The notes under the pieces: model-generated
Seen by the model: only the letters and a program-made list of their open reading frames with translations
Told to the model about the DNA's origin: nothing
Databases searched by the model: none
Shown here: one piece after another, positions 6,560 through 48,722 of the stretch
Layout of the letters: the number at the start of each line of letters is the position of its first letter
Position numbering within the stretch: position 1 is the stretch's first letter
Made by a program: the position numbers and the translations under genes
Origin: Paraspadella gotoi
Taxonomy: Eukaryota > Animalia > Chaetognatha
Reading direction: 5' to 3'
Length of the DNA: 48,722 nucleotides
Assembly (NCBI GenBank): GCA_051294375.1
Contig: CM119264.1
Coordinates: 20,127,564 to 20,176,285 of the forward strand

Positions 6560-6910
6560 AGTAAACTATCTCAGCCCTGACATTGGACTGGCTTTGGTGG
6601 TTTAAGGCGTCCTTTACAATTACAAGACAATAACATAGCAGGACCCTACAATCATTCAAACAAGGCTCTCTCAGTCTTGTTTATTCACACCCAGAGTACC
6701 CGGCTTCTCTATCAAATGGTCTAAAGTTTTAAAGTATATTTAATTTGTATAAAAGGAACACTCTATGACAACGGGGGAACATTAGTGACCGTGAGGGGAT
6801 TGAACCCGGAACTCAGGGTTGGTGAAGAAGTACTTTGCAGCCCAAGCCAATCGGACAAGCTGAGTTTTACCAAGCTATACGGGAGGCGAATTTAGGATTC
6901 GCCACAACTC
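6560..6910 (-). mobile_element. Degenerate element: leader hairpin + tRNA-like head + family A body with decayed twister
   Basis: Hairpin GGCGAAT/ATTCGCC near 6885-6903, B box GGTTCAATCC near 6800, family A homology about 6567-6716; twister 6567-6629 has GA changed to AA and other lesions. Confidence 0.55.
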
Positions 6911-7707
6911 CCTTCATAACCACAAATTTCAAGCATTGTAATTTGTCTTAATCTTCTTATTGGTTATCTAAACTTTAAAATGCTATGTCGGAATTTTTTC
7001 TTTCTTTCTTTTCTTTCTTTTTCTTTTCTGTACAGGGGAGGGACCCTACATCGAGACAAAACGTAACGTCCTGCCTTGTCTGAACGATTTGAGATACAAT
7101 AATAAAATGAGTGGCAAAACTTTGGGGAGAATTTTTACATTTATATGTAATGAAAAAAAAATTTTAAGCAACTACAAGGCGTCGCGTCGTGGATGTTTTC
7201 AAAACATTTAGTCGCGCACATTGTAAAAGCCATACTTTTCATAGGTCGTTTCTGAATTCACCCGATTTTAAGCTTTTCATCTCTATCCAAATTGAACCAG
7301 CTACAGCTCCAGCTCTAATGGGCCTAACACCAAGTGCTTACAGCACAAAAACGTTTATGATAAAAGCAAAATGAGACCATTTTTGGAAATTAGGCTAAAT
7401 TTTCTTTCCATCGATATCACAAATGTCTAGAAAATCCAACAGCAACTACTGTATTTAAAGCTTTTTGCATAACATAAAATTTAGTTTTAATAAAAACTAA
7501 ACTATAACTTACTCAAATCTTACCTACTTACTTTATAAATTTTTTTAACCAAAATACTATGTACACCTTGCCAGAAGCATTGTTATACTATAAATAAGTA
7601 CTTCCAAAAATATTTTCACTGTTATGTAATGGGATTTAACAATAAATATTCCAAACCGCGCAGTTGCCTTTGCTGCATAAAAAAAAGCATCAAAATAAAT
7701 AATATTT

Positions 7708-7948
7708 TGAAGAGACAGTAATAATTATAATTGTTAAGAGTTAATGACTGAATCATTCAATATTAGCAGTCTCTGAGCTTCGAATCAGGATGTAACACTG
7801 TGTTAACAGGCGGGTTAAGCGCCCTGTCCCTCTTAACTGCTAGGCGACCACCAGGCTAGAACCACAAACCTTTGGGTTGGGAGGCAAATGCCTTGCCTCC
7901 TGTACCAATGGCCGCTGATGAACGGTTGGTTTATTTTAGTCCACCATA
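7708..7948 (-). mobile_element. Family B tRNA-twister element, diverged copy
   Basis: Colinear with 46596-46814; twister 7764-7842 has an intact P5 (TAGCAGT/ACTGCTA) but a damaged T1 (CAG/TCG). Confidence 0.75.
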
Positions 7949-8953
7949 CATCCCCCTCCCCTAGAGATAAGTCTGTTTGCGTTAGGCGTGTGCCAAAGTT
8001 GCCAAAGTTTCTCGATTTTCAAATGAGGTCTCGGATAATATGGGAGGCCTAAAAAAGATGTTAGGAACAATCGCCGTTTTAGAATAGAAGCTGATCGCTG
8101 GCCGTGCTACCCTGCCTTGAAGGATTTTTGGGCACACCTTTCACGTTCATAGTTCATATGTGTTAAAGTAAGAAAGGTTTTTTGTTGTCCAACTTAAATT
8201 TAATTAGTTGTAAAAGTTAGAAAGTTAATTCAAATAAATTTCACAAGATCCCAACTACCTCTGAGGCTCTGCTGCAGCATTTACAACATGCGGAGGAGGT
8301 GGTAGCTATTAAAATAAAGATTATATCTTTTGAGTGCTGATGGTACTATAAAAGGTTCCTATAAAATTAATATTCATTAACAAGCCCTTTAACTAATTTC
8401 ATAACCTTTTTTTGAAAATGCAAGTATGTCTACACTCCTGGAGGATACTTCTTGTACAGTTTTTATAAATTGCTTAATTATATACAAAAATATAATATCT
8501 AATTAATTAGATAGTAAGACACAGTTTATAAAACTAGATAAGATAAAGTTTTTGGAAATCTTAAATTAAATTGACCAACAACTTCTCATGGGAGCCTCCT
8601 TTTGAAGGATTCTGAAAATTTATTCCACACCACATCAATTAAAAAAAAAGAAAGTTATGTTATCAAAAATAGCTTTAAAATAATAGTAATAAATTAAATA
8701 AAAAATTTTTACAGATATCATGATTACATTATACGAGGATGTGGACAAGGCTTGCTAGCTGATAGCTTTTCATTAACAAAGAAATAAAATCCTTATTTTT
8801 TGTTTAAAATATGGCCATAATAAATGATACCAAAAACAATTACTTTTAACCAAGGTGTGCCTAAATCTTTGTAAGATTCTTCATGTACAGACTGCCTGAA
8901 GGATAAAAATATCTTTTTATTATTATTATAGAATAAATATATATTTTATCATA

Positions 8954-10115
8954 GCGAGGAAAACCTGCTATGTCAATTATCTTTGTAAAGAGTGATGAGG
9001 GCCTTAAACACCAAAGCCTGTCCAAAGTCAGAGGGCAAGCATATGCTATTTATTAATGAAGGATAATTTTTATATTGTGTGTATAAACCAATTCAATAAA
9101 ATCAGCTCCTTGTATTTTGTTATGCATAGTGCGGATAACAATAAGTAATTCCGCACGATCTAATCTTAAGGGAGTGGTCTTTTCATAACAATTGAAACAT
9201 TCTTTGAAATATTTTCCACTTTCAATTGATAGGGAAGGCAGGTACTCTGTGAGAGTGAATAAACAACTGTGAGAGAGTCTTGAGTTGAAAAGCGTTGCAA
9301 GGACCTGCTATGTCATTATCTTGTAAGAAGTGATGGAGGGCCTTTAAACCACCAAAGCCTGTCAAAGTCAGGGGCAAGATTACTTATTTTATTAAATGAA
9401 TGGTACATTTTTAATTGGGTTGTACCATATTTCATAAAATTCAGACTCCTTGTATTTGATGCTATGCGGAGTACAATAATGTATTCCCCCGATCTAATAC
9501 TTAAGGGAGTGGTCTTTTCATACATATTGCAAACATCCATTTTGAATTTTTCCACTTCATTGATAGCGGAAGCCAGTACTCTGGGATGTGAATAAACGAG
9601 CTGTGAGAGAGTAGTCTGATTGAAAGCTTGCAGGGACCATGCTATGTCCATTACTTGTAGAGAGTGATGGAGGCCGTTAAGACCACCAAAGGCCTGTCCA
9701 AATCAGGGCAAGATACGCTTATTTATTAAATGAGATGGATAATTTTTGGTAATATATGGTTGTTAACCAATTTTCATAAAATTCAGCTCCGTTGTCATTT
9801 TGAGATGCTAGTGCGAGGTACATAAGTATTCCGCGATTCTAATACTATAAGGAGTGGTCTTTTCATACAATTGAACACATTCTTTGAAATATTCCATCCA
9901 GTTGATAGAGGAAGCCAGGGTACTTTCTGGTGAGTGAATAAACGAGATCTGTGAGAGAGGCTGATTGAAAGCTTGCAGGGATCCTGCTAGTTGTCATTAT
10001 CTTGTAAGATGTGGAGGCCCTTAACCTACCAAAGCCTGTCAATAGTCAGGGCGACAAGATAGCTTATTTATTAAATGAATGGATGAATTTTTTTATATTG
10101 TTGTTACAATTTCAT
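8954..10115 (+). repeat. Head-to-tail array of ~340-bp units (about 3.4 units, 4 twister motifs), retrozyme-like
   Basis: Twister motifs at 8978-9043, 9317-9381, 9652-9715 and 9998-10061 (spacings 339, 335, 346); each copy has different small indels; the array is absent from the opposite foldback arm, so it is an insertion. Confidence 0.85.
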
Positions 10116-11469
10116 GGATTATTGATCAGAATAAAGGCAATCAGCCTGAGTTAACTAAGAATATATAATATCTAATAAATACGATAAAATATCCTATATA
10201 AAATAGCTAAACTTCATTTACTTTAAATCTTAAGTTTTGGTTTTCTTTTATAAATGTTTGGTGTATTATAATTTTATCATATTTTAATTATATCTTACAA
10301 TTCTAATTTTCCTACTGCATGATATGTAAAGAAGGTGATTAACTGGATTTATTGGTTTATTAATTTTTTGATTTACATGAATTGAGTGGGGTCAATTAAT
10401 TAATTGATATGTAGTGTGGTTTGATTCTCTTTTACAGATTGTGTTGAATGATGAGGAATATCTGCATCATATATAGTAGATCAATATGAATTGTACTATT
10501 AAAGAACTTAATAAAATATGATTTCATAATATAATCACTGAACTCATATATCAATAAAAATTTTTTTATTATATCCATTTGGTCGGTCCATCAATCCGCC
10601 CACTCAGTCTGGCACTCAGTCACTTAATCATTCAAAAAATCGGAGATTAGATAAAAATTCTTGACAAAAAAGTTAATATCCGTCTCGTCCTGTGTCTATT
10701 CCAATAACATTAATGAAAAAAACAATTTAACAATGTTACAAATCTTTTATACTAATCTTAACCTATAATTATTTTAAGTAATCTACAAATTGGAGTAGAT
10801 GAGAAATAAATTTTTGGTATGGGTAGGAAAGTGTGTGTTGATTAGGCATGACGATATAAATAGGTTAAAAAAAATGATGCAAATAAAAAAATGAGGCAAA
10901 TTAATAAAAATGAATGCAAATTAAAAATGATGCAAGTTAAAAAAATAATGTGAGTTAAAAAGTATGATGTAATTTAAAAAAAATTGATGGACGGACCCGA
11001 GATTGAATAAACTATTTAAAAACAAATCACCTTTAAAAGTGGTTTATGTCACAGGTTTTCAGAGGCATTATTTCTCTCCTCACTGGAGTCTGGACGTTTC
11101 TAACGGTTAAATAATTCGCGATATCTTTTATCTTTCGCTATTCAATATTTTTCTCTTGCGGGAGAACAGGGCAAAGGCAGCAGCCAGAAGTCCACGGCCA
11201 CGTCGTGTCGTTGACCATGACGCGCGTAAATTGATGTTCTGATGATTAAGGTAAATGACCACCCAGATTCAGGTGTGGATGCGCTGGATCAACAAAATGG
11301 ATTATCAAAAGAATTTTTTTACACTGATTTATCTAATATTAAATGATTAATTTACTGAAACTCATAATTTTATCAAGTGTTTATAGTACATATATTGATT
11401 TAATCAGTATGAGTACAGATATTCTATTCCTTCAAACAACTGTAAAATGAATAAGTCAACCAAACTATA

Positions 11470-11900
11470 GAGATGTTTACAAGGTGTCTGCATGACAATA
11501 CGTTACAAGGTGTTTGGCGGATTCGCAGATGGATGGAGAAGTGGTACATTAAGGGTAGGTGGATCAGGGAGATCTGACAGAGGCTAAAATGACGGGCAGC
11601 TGGTGAAGCATGATGCAGGCCACGCTGAGAGTCGGGGTGTCAAAGGAGTAGCAGTACCAGCAGTGTACTTGTCTGACGCTACAGTGTGCGCATGGATAAA
11701 GGACGTTTGTGGGCAAAGTTTGTATAGTTGAGAGGACTGTTAAGATGGATGGGGCATATGGGCATGACTGTGATGAAGCACTGGGCGTGGCGGAACACTT
11801 AGCGTCTCGAGCGCTAATTAAGCGGACCGGCCACTAAGATCGCGCTTAGAGATTAGAGACGCGGTGGCCGAAAAGACGGAGCTGACTAAGATTTGAATTT
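11470..11900 (+). pseudogene. Degraded 3' fragment of an RTE-like non-LTR retrotransposon
   Basis: GC-richer insert in the right foldback arm; encodes LRWMGHMGM (RTE consensus LRWxGHxxRM) near 11740-11770, followed by a GRP-like remnant; many frameshifts. Confidence 0.45.
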
Positions 11901-13452
11901 TTTTCCCCTTTTTGAAACTTATAGTAAACTGGAGCCATAGAAGTAAAAGTATTAAACTACTACTACCCCTTTTACTCCATGTGTGTACATTAGCAATACG
12001 TTTGTTGAGTTTCGCAAGAGATGGTAATTAATTATTGGCATACACAGAAACAGCGACCAGTGCTAAGTTAATAATATATTAATTAATAATTAACCAACTT
12101 GATCAATTAATCACCAAATTATAAACCAATAATAAAATAATTACTTTTTTTATATATCATCAGCAGTGGGGAAATTAAGAAATTTAATCATTTGGAATAT
12201 ATTCAAATTTATAATAACTCTCATAACAATTTTTTAAAAACCTAAAAACTAAGCTTTAAAGTATATGGAATTTAGTTATCTTATTACAGGATATTTTATT
12301 ATTTATTAGATATATTATTCTAGGTTTGACTCAGGCTGATTGATTTATCTGATTTATATCATATTATGATAAAAATATATTTATTTATAATAATATAATA
12401 AGATATTTTATCCTTCAAACAGTCTGTACATGAAGAATCTACAAAGATGTAGGCACACCTTGGTTAAAAGTAATTGTATGATTAGTCTATCATTTATATG
12501 ACCATATTTTAACAAAAATAAGGATTTTATTCTAATTGAAAGCTTTATCAGCAGCAAGCTTTTTCCACATCCTCCAGCATATTGGAAATGCCTTTACAGG
12601 TGTATAAAAGAATTCTGTTCAAAAAATTTTAATTAAAAAAGTAACTACAAGTATTTTGCCAGCTATTAAAGCTATTTTTGATAACATAACTTTCTTTTTT
12701 TTTTAATTGATGAGGCGTGTGGAGATAATATTTTCAGAATCCTTCAAAAGAGGCTCCCATGAGAAGTTGTTGGTCAATCAATTTAAGATTTACCAAAAAC
12801 TTTTATCTTATCTAGTTTCATTAAACTGCCTTACTATCTAATTAATAGCTATATATTTTCTATATAATTAAGCAATTATAAAAACTGTACAGAAGTATCC
12901 TCCAGGATGTAGACATACTTGCATTTTCAAAAAAAGGTTATGAAATTAGTTAAAGGCTTGTTAATGAATATAATTTTATAGGAACCTTTTATAGTACCAT
13001 CAGCACTCAAAGATATAATCTTTATTTTAATAGCTACCACCTCTCCAGCATGTTGTAATGCTGCTGCAGAGCCTCCAGAGGTAGTTGGGATCTGAAAATT
13101 TATTTGAATTAAATTCATATACTTTTACAACTAATAAATTTAAGTGGGCACAAAAACTTTCTTACTTTAGACACAATGAACTATGAGTGAAAGGATGTGC
13201 CAAAAATCCTTCAAGGCAGGGTAGCACGGCCAGTGATCAACTTTTTAAACGGCGATTGTTCCTAACATCTTTTTTTAGGCCTCCACATATTATCCGAGAC
13301 CTCATTTGAAATCCGAGCAACTTTTGGCATTTGGCACACCCTACTGTTGCGTCTCTTCAGTGAATTGTTATTGTTGGTGTAAAGTTCATCACCAGGTTGA
13401 GGCAAATCGCCTGAAAGTGTTTGTCTGCTGTGTCAGAAATCGAGCTCACCAA

Positions 13453-13683
13453 TGAAGAGACAGTTATAATTGTTACAAGTGACAGAACCGTTCAATATAA
13501 GCAGTCCCTGAGCTTATGATCAAGGCGTAACACCGGTGTTACAGGCAGGTTTAGCGCCCCGTCCCTCTTAACTGCGAGGCGACTACTAGGCTAAAACCCT
13601 GGACCTTTGGTTTTGGAGGCAAATGACTTGCCTCCTGCACCAATGGCCGCTGATGAACGGTTGGTGGATTTTAGTCCACCATA
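13453..13683 (-). mobile_element. Family B tRNA-twister element, diverged copy
   Basis: Colinear with 46596-46814; twister 13501-13575 has L4 changed to TCATAAGC and TAA changed to AAA. Confidence 0.75.
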
Positions 13684-14094
13684 ATATCATCTAAAAGCGA
13701 AGAGAGAGTACTATATGAATATTTATTCAGATGATTTTATTTTATTTATTTATTAAAATCATGGACTTTTTAAAATTTTGTCTCGATATAGGGTCCCACC
13801 CCTGCGCTATTATGTTGTTGACAAATAGTCGTTGATAATGGTTGTTCCACCATGAGCAACTTCATCTAGTAAAATGGGCTTATACTTCATCTCCGAACCT
13901 GAAGACCCAATCGCGGTTTCCCAACTCCACTCCAGCGCTACCCAAAGGTCCCGAGTTGTAGTCCTTGTCGGTTCCGTCCTTTCATAAAACTATTATTAAT
14001 AGTGACGGGCTGGTTAATCTACCCAAAGCGCCGGGTGCAATACATGGGAACCGCCTCTCCTCTTGATTTTTTTAGCAAAACCATATCAACTCAC

Positions 14095-18675: not shown

Positions 18676-19140
18676 TAGCTAATAAAAAGTTGTCTACACA
18701 AAGTATAATTCTTTTTAAAATATTTTTACGATAAGTGTGTCAAAAATAAGAAAAACCATAAAAAATCATCATCTTCATCTTTCGATGATTTTATCATTTT
18801 TTTTATTTTCACTTAGAAAACATAAAAATTTTTAAAAGCTGTAATTATATGTCTTGTTTAACTTTTGATGCTCTATCAGAATCCATCAAAAAATTTTAAG
18901 ATTTAAAAAATAAAATTTTTGCTCTATATAGTAATATAATATTTTTAATTAGGCTAGTAACCTCAGAAGAAAGCATTTTTGATAAAAAATATTTTAATAC
19001 CGTAATCTATGGTCATGTTAGATTATTTTAACGCTGTATACATTAGCATTTAAATTTCATCGGCTATGACTATCTGTAGTTATTTTTATTTTTTTTACAA
19101 ATATAGTAGCTTAGTCAGCTTATTTTGTATATAGTACTAT

Positions 19141-19430
19141 TGTAGTCGGGCATTGCCTAGGTTCACCCCGCCTATAAGCATGACTCTTTCAGTTGTGAGC
19201 CGGTGGCTCATTGAGTAAAGCCATCAGCTCATGACCACTAGGTACCAGGTTTAATCCCAACCCGGTACCTACCCTGCGGGAAGAGTGAGGACGGCCGTAA
19301 GCCGCCTTGGGGGTGTGGCAAACCCTTAAGCCTGGTTCCAAGCCTTGGACCCGTTCCATGTCTGCTAGAGGGGGTTATAGAAGTTATGGATAGTCATCCT
19401 CAGCCAACTTAGCGCCTTATCCATACTACC
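19141..19430 (+). mobile_element. tRNA-derived short element, family C (leader hairpin + tRNA-like head + twister + 3' hairpin)
   Basis: Leader stem TGTAGTCGGG/CCCGCCTATA; head about 19197-19269 with TGGCTCATTGAG and GGTTTAATCC boxes; 3' stem TATGGATA/TATCCATA. Confidence 0.7.
19276..19354 (+). ncRNA. Type-P5 twister ribozyme motif, family C
   Basis: GCGGG-AA-GAGT-GA-GGA-CGGCCG-TAA-GCC-GCC-[P3 TTGGGGGT-GTGGCAA-ACCCTTAA]-G-CCTGG-T-TCC-AA-GC-CTTGG-A-CCCGT; T1 GGA/TCC, P5 GCGGG/CCCGT; predicted cut 19298/19299. Confidence 0.8.
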
Positions 19431-19495
19431 CTTATTATAAGGCTTATTATAAGGCTTATTATAAGGCTTATTATAAGGCTTATTATAAGGCTTAT
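19431..19495 (+). repeat. (CTTATTATAAGG)n perfect 12-mer tandem, about 5 copies
   Basis: Directly visible; lies between the family C element and an inverted family A terminus (19494-19515). Confidence 0.9.
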
Positions 19496-19630: not shown

Positions 19631-20651
19631 TTATGTCATTAAATAGGTTAAAATTATAAAAAAATATATTTTTAAACCAGAAATTAAAAATCGGCGTCTT
19701 AAATATAGTTTTTTGTATTGTAAAGGAGGTGCTGCTGTAGTTGGTTTTGGAGCCGGGGGAGGTGCGGCAGCAGTGGTTGGAGCAGCAGTTGGATTGATTG
19801 GAGCAGATTCAATTGTCGTACCTCCAAAATTTATTCTTCTGTTCCTTTCTCTTTCCAGTTGTTTGGTAAGTTCCTTGACTGATCTTACCAATTGGCAAAT
19901 CTTCTTTTCCTGTTTCTTTATTTCGACTTCATGATTGATGCAGTAATCTTGTATTTCGGTGATGGCTCTGTCTTGGGTGGATCTTGTCTCGTTGAAGGTC
20001 GTTTCTGCACATTTCTTGTTCCATCTCTTGTCTTCTAAGTTCCATTTCGCGTTCATACTTTCCTTCTTGTTTTTTCTTTTCTTCTTTAATGAGGGCGAGT
20101 TCCTGTTGTTCTCGTTCGAAATTGCGGAACGTTTGGTCGTCCCAAAACGTTTCCTTTGGTTTGGGGATTTCATACTCAGGGCCGGAATCCTCGTCTTCAG
20201 AAACAACATTCGGTTGTGTATCATTGATGGCGTCAAAATATCCATCAATCAATATTTCAGACTCATTTGTAGCATCATGTGTTTGCTTGGCTGCCGTCTC
20301 GGAATCAGCATCATCATTCTCGTCTTGCTCGTTTATTGCATCATTTCTCTCGGGAGGTGGCGCGTCACGGCGTCGTCGTTCGGTGACGTGAGCCATGTTG
20401 ATACTTTCGTCAAGCATCTCGCGTTGAACAGATCCTTTGGGATAGCTATCCTGCAGCATTTTGATCTGGCCAAGTTTTGTGTTCACCAAGAATTCCATCT
20501 CCGTTGCGATGGCGATGGCTTCAGGAGTTCCAGTTTGCAGGTATCGTTTAACTAGTCTACAAAGAGAGCCAACGGCGTCATGTATCCCTTCAGGAGAAAA
20601 ATCATCCATGTTGATTCGCGAAAATTCCTCCTCGAGAGCAGCAAATGTCAT
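19631..20651 (-). pseudogene. Frameshifted acidic/coiled-coil/Pro-Thr-Ala-rich ORF nested in gene 2 intron; possibly a retroelement ORF1/gag-like relic
   Basis: ATG at 20651 opens a 240-aa frame; removing one C near 19980 (GAC AAG ATC C ACC CAA) fuses it to a second coiled-coil and PTAAP-rich frame that degrades into AT-rich DNA near 19720. Confidence 0.5.
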
Positions 20652-31039: not shown

Positions 31040-31221
31040 TGAAATTGGTACAACCAATATAAAAATTATCCATTCATTTAATAAATTAGCTATCTTGCCC
31101 CTGACTTTGGACAGGCTTTGGTGGTTTAAGGCCTCCATCACTCTTACAAGATAATGACATAGCAGGTCCCTGCAAGCTTTCAATCAAGACTCTCTCACAG
31201 TCTCGTTTATTCACTCCCAGA
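31040..31221 (-). mobile_element. 5'-truncated monomer of the ~340-bp twister repeat (family A)
   Basis: Reverse-complement match to the 8954-10115 unit; same 3' terminus ...ATTGGTTGTACCAATTTCAT; flanked by AGATATAAT (31032-31040) and AGATATATT (31219-31227), a possible TSD. Confidence 0.75.
31091..31153 (-). ncRNA. Type-P5 twister ribozyme motif, family A, intact copy
   Basis: TATCTTGT-AA-GAGT-GA-TGG-AGGCCT-TAA-ACC-ACC-AAA-G-CCTG-T-CCA-AA-GT-CAGG-G-GCAAGATA: P5 TATCTTGT/GCAAGATA, T1 TGG/CCA, T2 AC/GT, P4 CCTG/CAGG, P2 ACC/G(A)GT, conserved GA and U^AA; predicted cut between 31128 and 31127. Confidence 0.85.
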
Positions 31222-31789
31222 TATATTATAGCAACAGCCGGGCATGTGATGCCCATTGCGAAGGGTCATCTCACTGTAAGCTCTGGGGGCATCTGACACT
31301 CAGAGGTACCGCCTGTTAATGGCGTGGTTAGACGGTTACCCGAGGACGGTCTCGCTTTACAAACGCAGAGGTGTGAGGTGTGAGGGGGTGTGAATATACC
31401 GCCACAATATCATATACATTCACAGACAACGAACAAAATAACATTGTGAGGAAATGGGTAAAAATGAGTAAAGAATTAATTAAGAAAGAACTACATAGAG
31501 ATCAAATTAGAGATTCCTTAACCGTTAAAAATTAACCGTTAATAACGGTTAAAATTTTTTTTAACTTAACCGTTAATTTTTGAATTTTAACAGTTAAATT
31601 CGGTTAAATTTTATTTTTTCCAATTTAGATATTTTGGTAAAAAATATTCTGTTTCCTTTAACTTATTCTGTTTTTCGAGAAATTTTTCTTAAAACAAAGT
31701 GAAACGTTCAAATAAGACACGTTTTTTATATAGTTTTTGTATTCATTATTTATTTATTCAGAGGAAAAACAAAGTTTGTTTTTGTTTAC

Positions 31790-46121: not shown

Positions 46122-46595
46122 CTGAAGCAACGATAAAAAAATAAATAATTAAGGAGCTATGGCTATAACGTGGAGACATGTGTGATGCCCGGGGTGTGAG
46201 ACATCTCACGACAGCTGGCGCTCAGGGATTTGGAACTGCAATAACATCGATGGAACAATATTTTTTTACTGTCTTTGTATATGTAATAAAAAATAATCTC
46301 TTTTTCAAAAAAAAAAAAAATGCATAAGTGTCATTAATTGAATTTCTTTTATACTGAGTTCGGACTTGAATCTTAACCCCTTAATTGATCCTCCGATTGT
46401 TTTACAAATTTTTTTAATTTTTTATAGCAGAAGAATCGTTAAGGATTTTTCTATCTTTTGGATTGTATTTAGTTTTGCTATGTCGAAAAACATTTGTATG
46501 GGAAGCAACCGAAACAATAAGTCATGTTTGCTCCGCGCCCAAACAGTTAAAATTCAACTACATATAAATATTTGCACTCCTGCAAAAGTTACAAT

Positions 46596-46814
46596 TATGG
46601 TGGACTAAAATCCACCAACCGTTCATCAGCGGCCATTGGTGCCGGAGGCAAGTCATTCGCCTCCCAACCCAAAGGTCCGGGGTTCTAGCCCGGTGGTCGT
46701 CTGGCAGTTAAGAGGGACGGGGCGCTTAACCCGCCTGTAACATGGTGTTATAGCCTGATCCGAAGCTCAGGGAATGCTTATATTGAACACTTATCAATAA
46801 TTACTGTCTCTTCA
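46596..46814 (+). mobile_element. tRNA-derived short element, family B (leader hairpin + tRNA-like head + twister)
   Basis: Hairpin GGTGGA-CTAAAA-TCCACC; tRNA-like 46629-46701 (GCGGCCA/TGGTCGT acceptor stem, A-box-like TGGTGCCGGAGG, B-box-like GGTTCTAGCC); shared end CTGTCTCTTCA; two further copies in the window. Confidence 0.8.
46703..46778 (+). ncRNA. Type-P5 twister ribozyme motif, family B, best copy
   Basis: GGCAGTT-AA-GAGG-GA-CGG-GGCGCT-TAA-CCC-GCC-[P3 TGTAACA-TGG-TGTTATA]-G-CCTGA-T-CCG-AA-GC-TCAGG-G-AATGCT; T1 CGG/CCG, T2 GC/GC, P4 CCTGA/TCAGG; predicted cut 46727/46728. Confidence 0.85.
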
Positions 46815-47335
46815 CAATGATCAACCTAGTGGGTTTTTTTTATGGTGGTCTTGAGAGAGTACTGTAATTTATAATTTATAATTTCTAGTATAAGCCAAAA
46901 TTGTATAACAATCAATTCGTACTTTAAAATTGTATATCTTAAAAAAAAATTGAAGCTGCAATAACTTGAAATTCCGTACAATTACAATTTTGGCCTCAGG
47001 GCATTATGTCCCATATAATACAGTATCTAAATTCATTTGGATATTGCAGTATGGGGCGAATTAAATATAACACTCAACAGTATAGTACTTGTAACCGAAT
47101 TACATCAATCTCGGGCCATTATTGAATACACAGTGGTAACAAGAATGTAAAGACTTTTTCATATCGTCTACTCATCTTTGGAAGGGTCCTATGGAAGGTA
47201 TACTTCATAAATGAAATAATTGTTAAAACTAAATTTTTCAGATATATCATTAAGTACAAATAATCGAGGGGACTAATAATAATTTTTCCTATGGGGGGTA
47301 AGTTTTAAGTCCGAACCCTGTAGTAATATCCTTAT

Positions 47336-47511
47336 GTTATTATCCTTTCTTTTTCGTTTAGTAAAAGGTTTGAATTTACTTCATCGGCGTTAACAGTTTT
47401 AACTGTTTTACTGTTAACACCGATGAAGGCTTGAAAACAAAACCCGTAACATGTCCGTTTTGTATTAAAAAATAAAAATCGTTACAGAAATTAATTTAAA
47501 CCTTTTTATTA
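47336..47511. mobile_element. Penelope-like pLTR remnant, inverted arrangement, 14-bp TSD
   Basis: Decayed hammerhead CCGATGAAGGCTT...CCGTAACATGTC, inverted repeat CTTCATCGGCGTTAACAG/CTGTTAACACCGATGAAG, TSD AGTAATATCCTTAT at 47322-47335 and 47512-47525. Confidence 0.65.
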
Positions 47512-47864
47512 AGTAATATCCTTATAAAATCATATATTTTTAATTTTAAGAACAGTTTCAGATTAGCTGAAAAAAACTGAAAAACTTTTGTAAAATATGT
47601 TTCATGATATTTTTAGTTTCTATTACAGAGAGTAAAAAAGTAAATAATTTTGACCTTTTTGCCCATTTTTTATGCCGAGGTCATTAAAAATTTTAATAAC
47701 ATATTTCATATTTTTGATCTTAGGCAGTGATTTCTATCGAGGAATTTAGCAAAAAAACCACTTTTTGCAATATTGCTAGAATATTACCTACAAAATTGAT
47801 TAAATTTGAACCCTAAGACAAAGTGGGCTGGCTTACAGGTTAATTGACATCATCTGCTGCATTT

Positions 47865-47874
47865 NNNNNNNNNN
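47865..47874. other. Assembly gap (10 N) followed by an apparently exact duplicate of 46811-47051
   Basis: 47875-48115 repeats 46811-47051. Confidence 0.9.
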
Positions 47875-48114
47875 TTCACAATGATCAACCTAGTGGGTTT
47901 TTTTTATGGTGGTCTTGAGAGAGTACTGTAATTTATAATTTATAATTTCTAGTATAAGCCAAAATTGTATAACAATCAATTCGTACTTTAAAATTGTATA
48001 TCTTAAAAAAAAATTGAAGCTGCAATAACTTGAAATTCCGTACAATTACAATTTTGGCCTCAGGGCATTATGTCCCATATAATACAGTATCTAAATTCAT
48101 TTGGATATTGCAGT

Positions 48115-48722
48115 ACTTTCCTACCCACACACAAAATTCAATTTCGATTTATCTATCCAATTTTTAATAAACAAAATAATTATGAGTAAATTTAAGTAAA
48201 AATACTTCAAGTAAATATGACTTTTGTTTTTTCCATTTTAACTCATTTCCACTCGCACGATTCCATCGAAACTTTATATCCGGCTCAATCACACATTTTC
48301 CTACCATCATACAAAATTTCAAGTCAATTGCACTATCCACTCATGAGCAATTGGCGTTCAAATAGTGAAATATATTTTTTTGTTTTTTCCATTTAAACCA
48401 ATTTCCACTCGCACGATTCCTTCGAAACTTCATATCCATCTCAATCACACAGTTTCCTACCCACACACAAAATTTCATACCAATCCATCCATCCAATCAC
48501 GGGTAATTGGAGTTTTTTGCTAAGGTGGGACGGAGACGGACGGACGGACGGACGGACGGACGGACGGACGGAGGACGGACGGACGGACAGACGGACGGAC
48601 GGATATCATTTTTTTTGCATAATTTATCATAATTCGATGTTCTGACATGATATAAGTGTGTGCCCGACAATATTGAGGGGGCGGACCGACGGACCGAAAA
48701 AGTGAGTTATAGAGTCGGGATC
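48115..48722 (-). mobile_element. HINE H-A 5' part (cut by the window edge)
   Basis: Close reverse-complement match to about 41200-41760. Confidence 0.75.

Follow-up and report, generated by a model that had tools for sequence, protein, structure and literature searches.

The repeat at positions 19141-19430 of the stretch of Paraspadella gotoi DNA analysed here (48,722 nucleotides, referred to as the window) had been noted, from its letters, as the second of two elements, families B and C, in which a hairpin, a tRNA part and a twister ribozyme follow one another. It had also been proposed that the 3' segment of family C could switch the ribozyme off in the full-length RNA. The locus thus raises the question of what kind of element carries this combination, whether the ribozyme fold is credible, and whether the 3' segment acts on it. 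Coordinates of all features are collected in Table 1.

The window is AT-rich (~32% GC) and carries many microsatellites and dispersed repeats; no recognisable genes were found along its whole length. A scan of the whole window against Rfam at gathering threshold returned no matches, and ARAGORN no tRNA genes. Pfam was run on 63 of the 75 stop-to-stop ORFs, the 12 simple-repeat frames being left out; none of the 63 matched a retroelement family, indicating that the window holds no helper element, and the single match obtained was weak and unrelated. For a 240-aa ORF on the minus strand (19932-20651), 500 bp downstream of the family C element, there was no Pfam match, nor any homologue among proteins of comparable length (E≤0.001). 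Further along, an identical 241-nt direct repeat flanks a 10-N gap (46811-48115), probably an assembly overlap. The region is present in 9 sequencing runs from 3 studies, none recorded as RNA. Copy variation of family C was read from variant tables of contigs from four runs (4886, 5905, 2449 and 487 contigs) aligned to 19060-19430; 40 variants are listed, with 5 weaker ones besides.

Table 1 Features of the family C element and of related elements in the window.
Feature	Position	Strand	Basis or remark
Family C element, likely solo LTR	19141..19425	+	Contig exit points; TG at 5' end, TA at 3' end here, CA in other copies
Left target-site duplication CTAT	19137..19140	+	3 of 4 letters as in right copy
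Right target-site duplication CTAC	19426..19429	+	Host-repeat contigs skip the element
12-bp tandem repeat	19431..19495	+	Part of flanking host repeat; sequence behind 19423 unrelated in other copies
U3-like 5' part, upstream of predicted Pol III start	19141..19196	+	Without similarity to family B
tRNA-like head, predicted internal Pol III promoter	19197..19269	+	Box A-like 19204-19215, box B-like 19248-19258
Predicted type-P5 twister fold	19276..19354	+	Permutation open at P5; pairing across families and variants
Twister P5	19276-80/19350-54	+	Fold reading
Twister P2	19283,19285-86/19301-03	+	3 bp with bulge
Twister catalytic GA	19287-88	+	Core letters
Twister T1	19289-91/19337-39	+	3 bp, all Watson-Crick in family C
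Twister P1 remnant	19292-97	+	6 nt, 1-2 bp at most
Twister UAA	19298-300	+	Core letters
Twister T2	19304-05/19342-43	+	2 bp, all Watson-Crick in family C
Twister P3	19306-13/19323-30	+	Fold reading
Twister P4	19331-35/19344-48	+	4 of 5 pairs in window copy
Predicted cleavage site U^A	19298..19299	+	Homology to twister UAA loop (PMC8501958, in part); 29 nt after head
Competing hairpin UCCAA/UUGGA, private to window copy	19337..19349	+	Pair probabilities 0.34-0.95
Candidate anti-ribozyme strand, complementary to 19286-19295	19393..19402	+	Pair count, folding, variants
Enclosing stem 19385-92/19418-25	19385..19425	+	8 bp in window copy, 5 contiguous bp in most copies
Family B 5' LTR (tRNA-like head and twister)	13453..13683	-	LTR anatomy
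Family B primer-binding site, tRNA-Trp-like	13440..13451	-	TGG site; 10 of 13 letters as in Trp site, Fig. S2 of PMC10886601 (in part)
Family B polypurine tract	7951..7962	-	Precedes 3' LTR; also in letters joining internal part and LTR
Family B 3' LTR	7708..7948	-	LTR anatomy
Family B solo LTR	46596..46814	+	Perfect 4-bp duplication CAAT/CAAT
Family A twister, P1-less type-P5 without P3	31094..31150	-	Independent covariation control

The ends of the element were read from the points at which contigs leave the alignment. On the 5' side, 88, 109 and 87 contigs (runs X1, X4 and X5) exit before 19141 and a further 41, 58 and 38 before 19140, about the number expected from a chance T. On the 3' side, 42, 38, 33 and 14 contigs of the four runs depart behind 19423 into unrelated flanks, and the consensus of their unaligned letters begins with CA in all four. 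From these ends we infer termini TG...CA over 19141-19425, i.e. a repeat of 285 bp, the C at 19424 coming from a low-agreement consensus. Termini of the Helenus-type LTR, TG (or TA)...CA, are thus present in the family, and the window copy ends in TA. No ORF of 80 aa spans the element. The summed depth of family C in X1 (1e5-6e5, against 12-41 for single long pieces) is not a copy number; we claim hundreds of dispersed copies and suspect thousands. One subfamily has a different 5' junction with loose ends before 19161 (19157-19160), and a subfamily variant of the T-arm is ~7 nt shorter (19247-19263).

Contigs of a second repeat pass from 19139 directly into CCCTTAT, the right flank of the element. 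Together with the flanking CTAT and CTAC, which agree in three of four letters in this one copy and also allow a 5-bp (19135-39/19424-28) or a 6-bp reading, these bridging contigs indicate that family C inserted into the second repeat. A corollary conclusion is that the 12-bp tandem array behind the element is not its tail. The hairpin that had been placed at the 5' end (19141-19176) is weak, its stability being at chance (z -0.3 and -1.2), whereas the corresponding family B hairpin reaches z -3.6.

Could the element be SINE-like or otherwise of non-LTR type, akin to the schistosome tRNA-plus-hammerhead repeats and merely resembling family B? No internal region, primer site or polypurine tract of family C was seen in the contigs, a tRNA-like head is there with a tandem repeat behind the window copy, and twisters are known in non-LTR elements (PMC8501958, in part), all of which would fit. 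Against this, 56 nt lie upstream of the head and hence outside a Pol III transcript, in other copies CA is followed abruptly by unrelated sequence, without a tail; the tandem array is part of the host repeat; and head, spacer and ribozyme share their layout with family B. We consider a non-LTR origin very improbable, and the specific case of a tRNA-derived SINE was rejected on the 56 nt preceding the head, the sharp 3' end and the missing tail. None of the 15 joints listed, out of 93, links the 3' end of family C back to its 5' end; all are skips.

Family B, by comparison, is a TRIM with two LTRs, a primer site and a polypurine tract, ~600 bp in total length. Its primer site equals the Trp site in 12 of 13 letters in most copies, and four X4 contigs join the internal part to the start of the next LTR over 26 letters that include the polypurine tract. 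The internal part is multi-copy, with a depth in X1 of mostly 3e4-7e4 versus LTR peaks of 6e5-1.1e6. In the predicted fold of the minus strand, the LTR end (13453-13462) pairs with the internal leader near the primer site (13348-13360), a pairing which we take to resemble retroviral U5-leader stems. In the window, the internal part is split by a presumably hAT-like insert of 5.3 kb (~7985-13335), which carries an array of family A; its terminal inverted repeats are ~900 bp long and begin with TAGGG, and its duplication is 8-9 bp, a size that led us to reject a TA-duplicating element. A fragment like the family B head (25 nt, 84%) lies at 13844-14014.

The order of modules is the same in B and C, as had been described: head, spacer and ribozyme are laid out alike. 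The accompanying claim, that the two share no similarity outside the twister, holds only in part. There is no BLASTN match, and alignment of the 5' and 3' parts does no better than chance (p=0.42 and 0.61), but the heads align above it (p=0.002), as do the twisters (p=0.001). Since family B with this same layout is a TRIM, family C is most likely the solo LTR of a Helenus-type TRIM, and that it is a solo LTR of some kind we regard as very probable.

Helenus (TRIMp3; Kojima 2024) comprises TRIMs with tRNA-like boxes in their LTRs, a primer site and a polypurine tract; animal members make a 4-bp duplication, and a Gypsy helper has been proposed (PMC10886601, in part). Both this helper and Pol III transcription stand as unvalidated proposals in the accessible part of that defining paper, which is without transcript data. 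Family C shares with Helenus that it is short and non-coding, with boxes A and B inside the LTR and sequence upstream of the head, and family B adds the Trp-like primer site, polypurine tract, solo LTR, 4-bp duplication and a length of ~600 bp (Helenus, less than ~1.3 kb). What sets B and C apart is the twister fold after the head, a place taken in most published Helenus LTRs by a T-run, with 25-60 nt left to the end (supplement, in part). In Cassandra TRIMs, too, the LTR contains a Pol III promoter that stems from a small-RNA gene; unlike family C, they are 5S-derived and from plants, and a ribozyme is not reported for them in the accessible part of PMC10886601.

The 'tRNA' of the preliminary description survives as tRNA-like boxes in a tRNA-like head, not as a tRNA. 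The family C head has the TGGCT box A start and a box B at tRNA spacing, while the YGG of box A is absent; box B reads GGTTT in the window copy and GGTTC in 98-99.7% of summed depth. It folds as two long hairpins (z -5.5) and not as a cloverleaf, and families B and C have no Rfam tRNA match at E≤10. A tRNA gene was accordingly rejected, this Rfam result being joined by that of ARAGORN. No T4 run occurs between the head and the LTR end, a property of only 358 of 4850 window segments of equal length; as 63% of shuffled elements also lack T4, it is not significant. In theta-type tRNA trailer processing, the cut is expected at the tRNA 3' end; such a role was rejected for family C, where the predicted cut lies 29 nt from the tRNA 3' end.

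Behind the head, the modules follow one another from 5' to 3' as P5, P2', GA, T1', the 6-nt P1 remnant, UAA, P2, GC, C, P3, G, P4, an 8-nt L4 and P4', and the conserved core letters UAA, GA, GC/GC and L4 U...AAGC are present in order. Module order and L4 agree with the table for S. mansoni, L4 being identical to that of Sma-1-119 (PMC8501958, in part). The predicted cut at U19298^A19299 agrees with the distance of about 29 nt after the head that had been given for it. As in the type-P5 twister (RF02684; PMC5408937, in part), the fold is open at P5 and has GA, UAA, GC in T2, an 8-nt L4, a T1 of 3 bp and a T2 of 2 bp; it departs from the RF02684 consensus in the 6-nt P1, a P2 5' strand of 3 nt instead of 4, and the extra P3 hairpin of B and C. 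Stem P1 is thus nearly lost in family C, with 1-2 bp at most. The Perere-3 twister T-variants of S. mansoni (Liu et al. 2021) also have a weak or missing P1 and are tied to a retroelement, although these twisters are of type P1 and sit at the 5' end of an autonomous non-LTR element (PMC8501958, in part).

Support for the fold comes from pairing, both between families and within family C. Taking three B copies together with C, pairing holds in 89% of 74 cells, and 5 of 19 pairs differ on both sides across the four copies; 1 of 500 shuffles reaches that count and slid controls give 0-1, the count being inflated in that the four sequences are related and the structure was derived from them. A model derived from B and C recovers family A (31094-31150), to which they are unrelated, at E 9e-8. 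T1 reads CCA/UGG in family A, UCC/GGA in C and CCG/CGG in B, and T2 AC/GU in A as against GC/GC in B and C; both pseudoknots thus covary across three unrelated families. Family A also has a match to Rfam Twister-P5, with the register unchanged (25.8 bits versus a gathering score of 37.6, E 0.0019). Among 75 pattern matches serving as a null set (4 viral, 71 metagenome), all have at most 9 of 14 pairs, versus 13 in C and 14 in B; scored by the model, these 75 loci reach 14.7 bits at best, with 5 matches at E≤1. Within family C, none of the 40 listed variants falls on 19286-19300, 19302-19310 or 19328-19344, while the common ones lie in the P3 loop (19315, 19319, 19322), in the bulge of P2 (19284) or at paired positions whose pairing they preserve (19277, 19301), and P4 is fully paired in 94-99.7% of depth. 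The compensatory changes in the pseudoknots of A, B and C bear out the twister call, and the prediction of a type-P5 twister with almost no P1 at 19276-19354 is well supported.

Might this fold nevertheless be a relic or a passenger, inactive in an element that moves as an ordinary Helenus TRIM? P1 is nearly absent, P2 is one base short and T1 is broken in two of three B copies. The RF02684 gathering score is not reached by A, B or C, and neither B nor C has an Rfam twister match at E≤10, probably because the Rfam consensus is without P3; Rfam scans returned no hammerhead for family C either. Cleavage without P1 has been called inefficient (PMC8501958, in part). Elsewhere P1 is reported as dispensable (PMC5408937 and PMC6154101, both in part), and its absence thus weighs against a canonical member of the class and not against a working one. 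Flaws in P1, P2 and P4 are tolerated in natural twisters, unlike flaws in the pseudoknots or catalytic bases (PMC11662667, in part). It is the catalytic and pseudoknot positions that are without listed variants over thousands of contigs, with loops that vary, and the fold persists in three unrelated families, where both pseudoknots show compensatory changes. A relic fold therefore appears improbable to us.

Family A itself shows no tRNA-like head. Degenerate tandem copies lie on the plus strand at ~8980-9040, 9320-9380, 9655-9715 and 10000-10055 (period ~340 bp) and another on the minus strand at ~6570-6630; many of the copies differ by small indels, which may be sequencing error. Family A may represent a non-LTR retrozyme with a twister as its ribozyme, or else a Penelope-type tail. 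A pair of related, GC-rich units that contain short hairpins lies at 31216-31360, abutting the family A copy at 31094-31150, and at 46146-46262. At 6765-6916 (minus strand), a GC-rich TG...CA unit beside a decayed family A copy has a box B towards its 3' end but lacks a twister; it resembles an inserted solo LTR of the ordinary Helenus type.

The copy in the window is a poor representative of its family. Its letter is not that of the majority (73-99.7% of depth) at 11 listed positions and, probably, at 19424, mostly through C-to-T changes. Because of its private letters at 19345 and 19346, P4 contains a U.U and a G.U, and a hairpin arises at 19337-19349 that hides the T1 and T2 strands and is populated in all five constructs folded. 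Neither this broken P4 nor the LTR nature of the element had featured in the preliminary description. On these predictions the hairpin is the dominant alternative fold of the window copy; the copy is decayed, and its predicted ribozyme probably cuts poorly. The hairpin would also confound a comparison of cleavage between transcripts ending at 19360 and 19430, if run on the window copy.

How would such an element use its ribozyme? We find it fairly probable that family C is the likely solo LTR of a Helenus-type TRIM with a predicted twister, the full element being cut in both LTRs and its RNA circularised as in plant retrozymes. Full-length family C would have an internal part like that of family B. 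Pol III would start near 19197 in the 5' LTR, so that the 56 nt upstream would still be copied, being supplied by the 3' LTR, and transcription would read through, there being no T4 run from the head to the LTR end. Cleavage at U19298^A19299 in both LTRs would leave a unit-length RNA without terminal repeat, whose 5'-OH and cyclic-phosphate ends would be ligated by RtcB into a circle; in family B this would comprise the LTR and the internal part, ~355-375 nt. A host tRNA would then prime at the primer site, a Gypsy helper would reverse-transcribe, and integration would produce a 4-bp duplication. Precedents exist for parts of this route: RtcB circularises metazoan retrozyme monomers in vitro (PMC7229834, in part), and in plant retrozymes circularisation compensates for the missing terminal repeat and solo, full and multimeric DNA can arise (PMC4918200, in part).

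The same LTR element could alternatively work through a linear RNA that starts at the head of the first LTR and stops where the second is cut; the twister would then only make the 3' end in place of a T-run terminator, and a ~100-nt repeat (19197-19298) would serve ordinary strand transfer. By eye, a T-run stands right after the tRNA boxes in most published Helenus LTRs (supplement, in part), at the place that the twister takes in B and C. The ribozyme in the 5' LTR would then have to be slow or off, and it is here that the proposed 3' pairing could act. In the window copy, the 3' strand GTCATCCTCA (at 19393) faces TGAGGACGGC (at 19286), and is enclosed by TATGGATA (at 19385) and TATCCATA (at 19418), each occurring once in the window. 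The two strands had been described as complementary: the coordinates are right and 9 of 10 positions pair (8 Watson-Crick, 1 G.U), with a C.A mismatch at 19292/19396. The enclosing stem is a perfect 8 bp in the window copy and has 5 contiguous pairs or fewer in most copies.

Several results bear on whether this pairing forms. Compared with 3000 shuffled tails, the 10-mer pairing has p=0.06 and pairing to the 17-nt catalytic strand p=0.39, and 19286-19295 ranks fourth among 204 targets of the tail. Two constructs give a pairing probability of 0 and a third no more than 0.12, pseudoknots lying outside the fold model, and forcing the pairing raises the energy over the minimum by 3.4 kcal/mol (from 19197) or 6.1 kcal/mol (from 19141). 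Elsewhere in the family, T stands at 19399 in 98.6-99.7% of depth, which turns the G-C with 19289 into G.U, and enclosing-stem pairs are lost through C at 19387 (89-97%), C at 19391 (32-48%) and, probably, C at 19424. Nine of ten pairs stay possible, and both partner segments are otherwise conserved, 19399 being the only listed variant in 19393-19402, but the pairing is stronger in the window copy than in the family, and the contig variants contain no compensatory change between 19286-95 and 19393-402. Switching-off by the 3' segment, as originally stated, is not sustained by this low probability, the pairs lost in other copies and the lack of compensatory change; a functional switch seems unlikely to us, and by these models the pairing is at most a secondary conformer.

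Family B offers a parallel, with a 9-pair complement to the catalytic strand at its LTR end (p=0.007, 0.017 and 0.087 in three copies). There, the predicted anti-pairing is 0.6-0.9 in the solo copy folded as a whole LTR, 0.25-0.41 from the head, 0.03 in the 3' LTR copy, and 0 in the 5' LTR with the internal part, where the LTR-end segment pairs with the internal leader instead. Helenus LTRs without ribozyme also end in TGTCTCT-type pyrimidine tracts (PMC10886601 supplement, in part), and chance pairing with a purine-rich strand is thus easy. That in both B and C a 3' segment could pair with the catalytic strand, and that 19393-19402 is so little varied, speaks for a linear RNA. On the other hand, the segment follows both ribozymes and gives no built-in asymmetry, the value of 0.0 in the B 5' LTR points in the wrong direction, the family C pairing is hardly populated and costly, and pyrimidine-tract ends are shared by ribozyme-free LTRs. 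We therefore give the linear route a minor chance only, and retain circularisation as the reading to be placed among known systems.

Like the plant LTR retrozymes (Cervera et al. 2016, PMC4918200; PMC7761336, in part), family B is non-autonomous with a predicted ribozyme in each LTR, a primer site, a polypurine tract, a 4-bp duplication and solo LTRs (PMC4918200, in part). It differs from them in having a twister and not a type III hammerhead, a tRNA-like internal promoter, an animal host, a unit of ~360 nt versus 600-1000 (source in part) and circles that are predicted here. Metazoan non-LTR retrozymes are also short ribozyme-bearing animal repeats, one family with a tRNA (PMC7229834, PMC4918200, both in part); unlike family C, they are tandem, carry a type I hammerhead and have no LTR, primer site or polypurine tract in the available text, as PMC7761336 (in part) also has it. 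Unpublished type III hammerheads in insects are mentioned in the latter. In the literature searched, outside which lay subscription journals and Repbase, no report was found of a twister in an LTR or of a ribozyme in Helenus. The Helenus main text has no occurrence of 'twister' or 'self-cleav', and no twister was seen after the tRNA boxes in the accessible part of its supplement, where motifs broken across lines may escape searches (PMC10886601). PMC13570524, which cites the Helenus paper, makes no link to ribozymes in its accessible part.

Hammerhead layouts were recognised by what we take to be the hammerhead core. Two of five matches to this core motif in the accessible Helenus supplement, Helenus-2_SyJa-LTR and Helenus-2_SyUm-LTR of Synergus gall wasps, have, as read by eye, the layout of a type III hammerhead directly behind the tRNA boxes. 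In both, a long loop-loop pairing is seen, that place is free of T4 runs, and the Trp primer site resembles that of family B; the Helenus paper, as far as accessible, does not mention a hammerhead in them (PMC10886601). These LTRs indicate that the arrangement of a tRNA promoter followed by a ribozyme in an LTR recurs across ribozyme classes. The suggestion that the architecture is old or recurrent is thereby strengthened: family B is a TRIM, family C a likely solo LTR, family A has the same P1-less twister, and the wasp LTRs carry hammerhead layouts.

Twisters are widespread with few assigned roles, and a twister 29 nt behind the promoter in each LTR would bear on how TRIMs with Pol III promoters make an RNA with usable ends. 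Such an arrangement predicts a circle of LTR plus internal part joined at a named base. The families also supply many natural P1-less type-P5 variants that are missed by Rfam thresholds (no gathering matches, with three families in the window). More generally, we propose tentatively, leaning slightly towards doubt, that Pol III-driven ribozyme TRIMs form a recurrent animal class of LTR retrozymes moving via RNA circles, in which the cutting module is exchangeable, being a P1-less type-P5 twister in two or more abundant families of the window and a type III hammerhead in the Helenus of gall wasps. If true, the published split, with LTR retrozymes in plants and only non-LTR ones in animals, would fall, and the twister would gain a defined job in an LTR element. 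The model we favour would join Helenus and the retrozymes, and would extend LTR retrozymes to an animal host.
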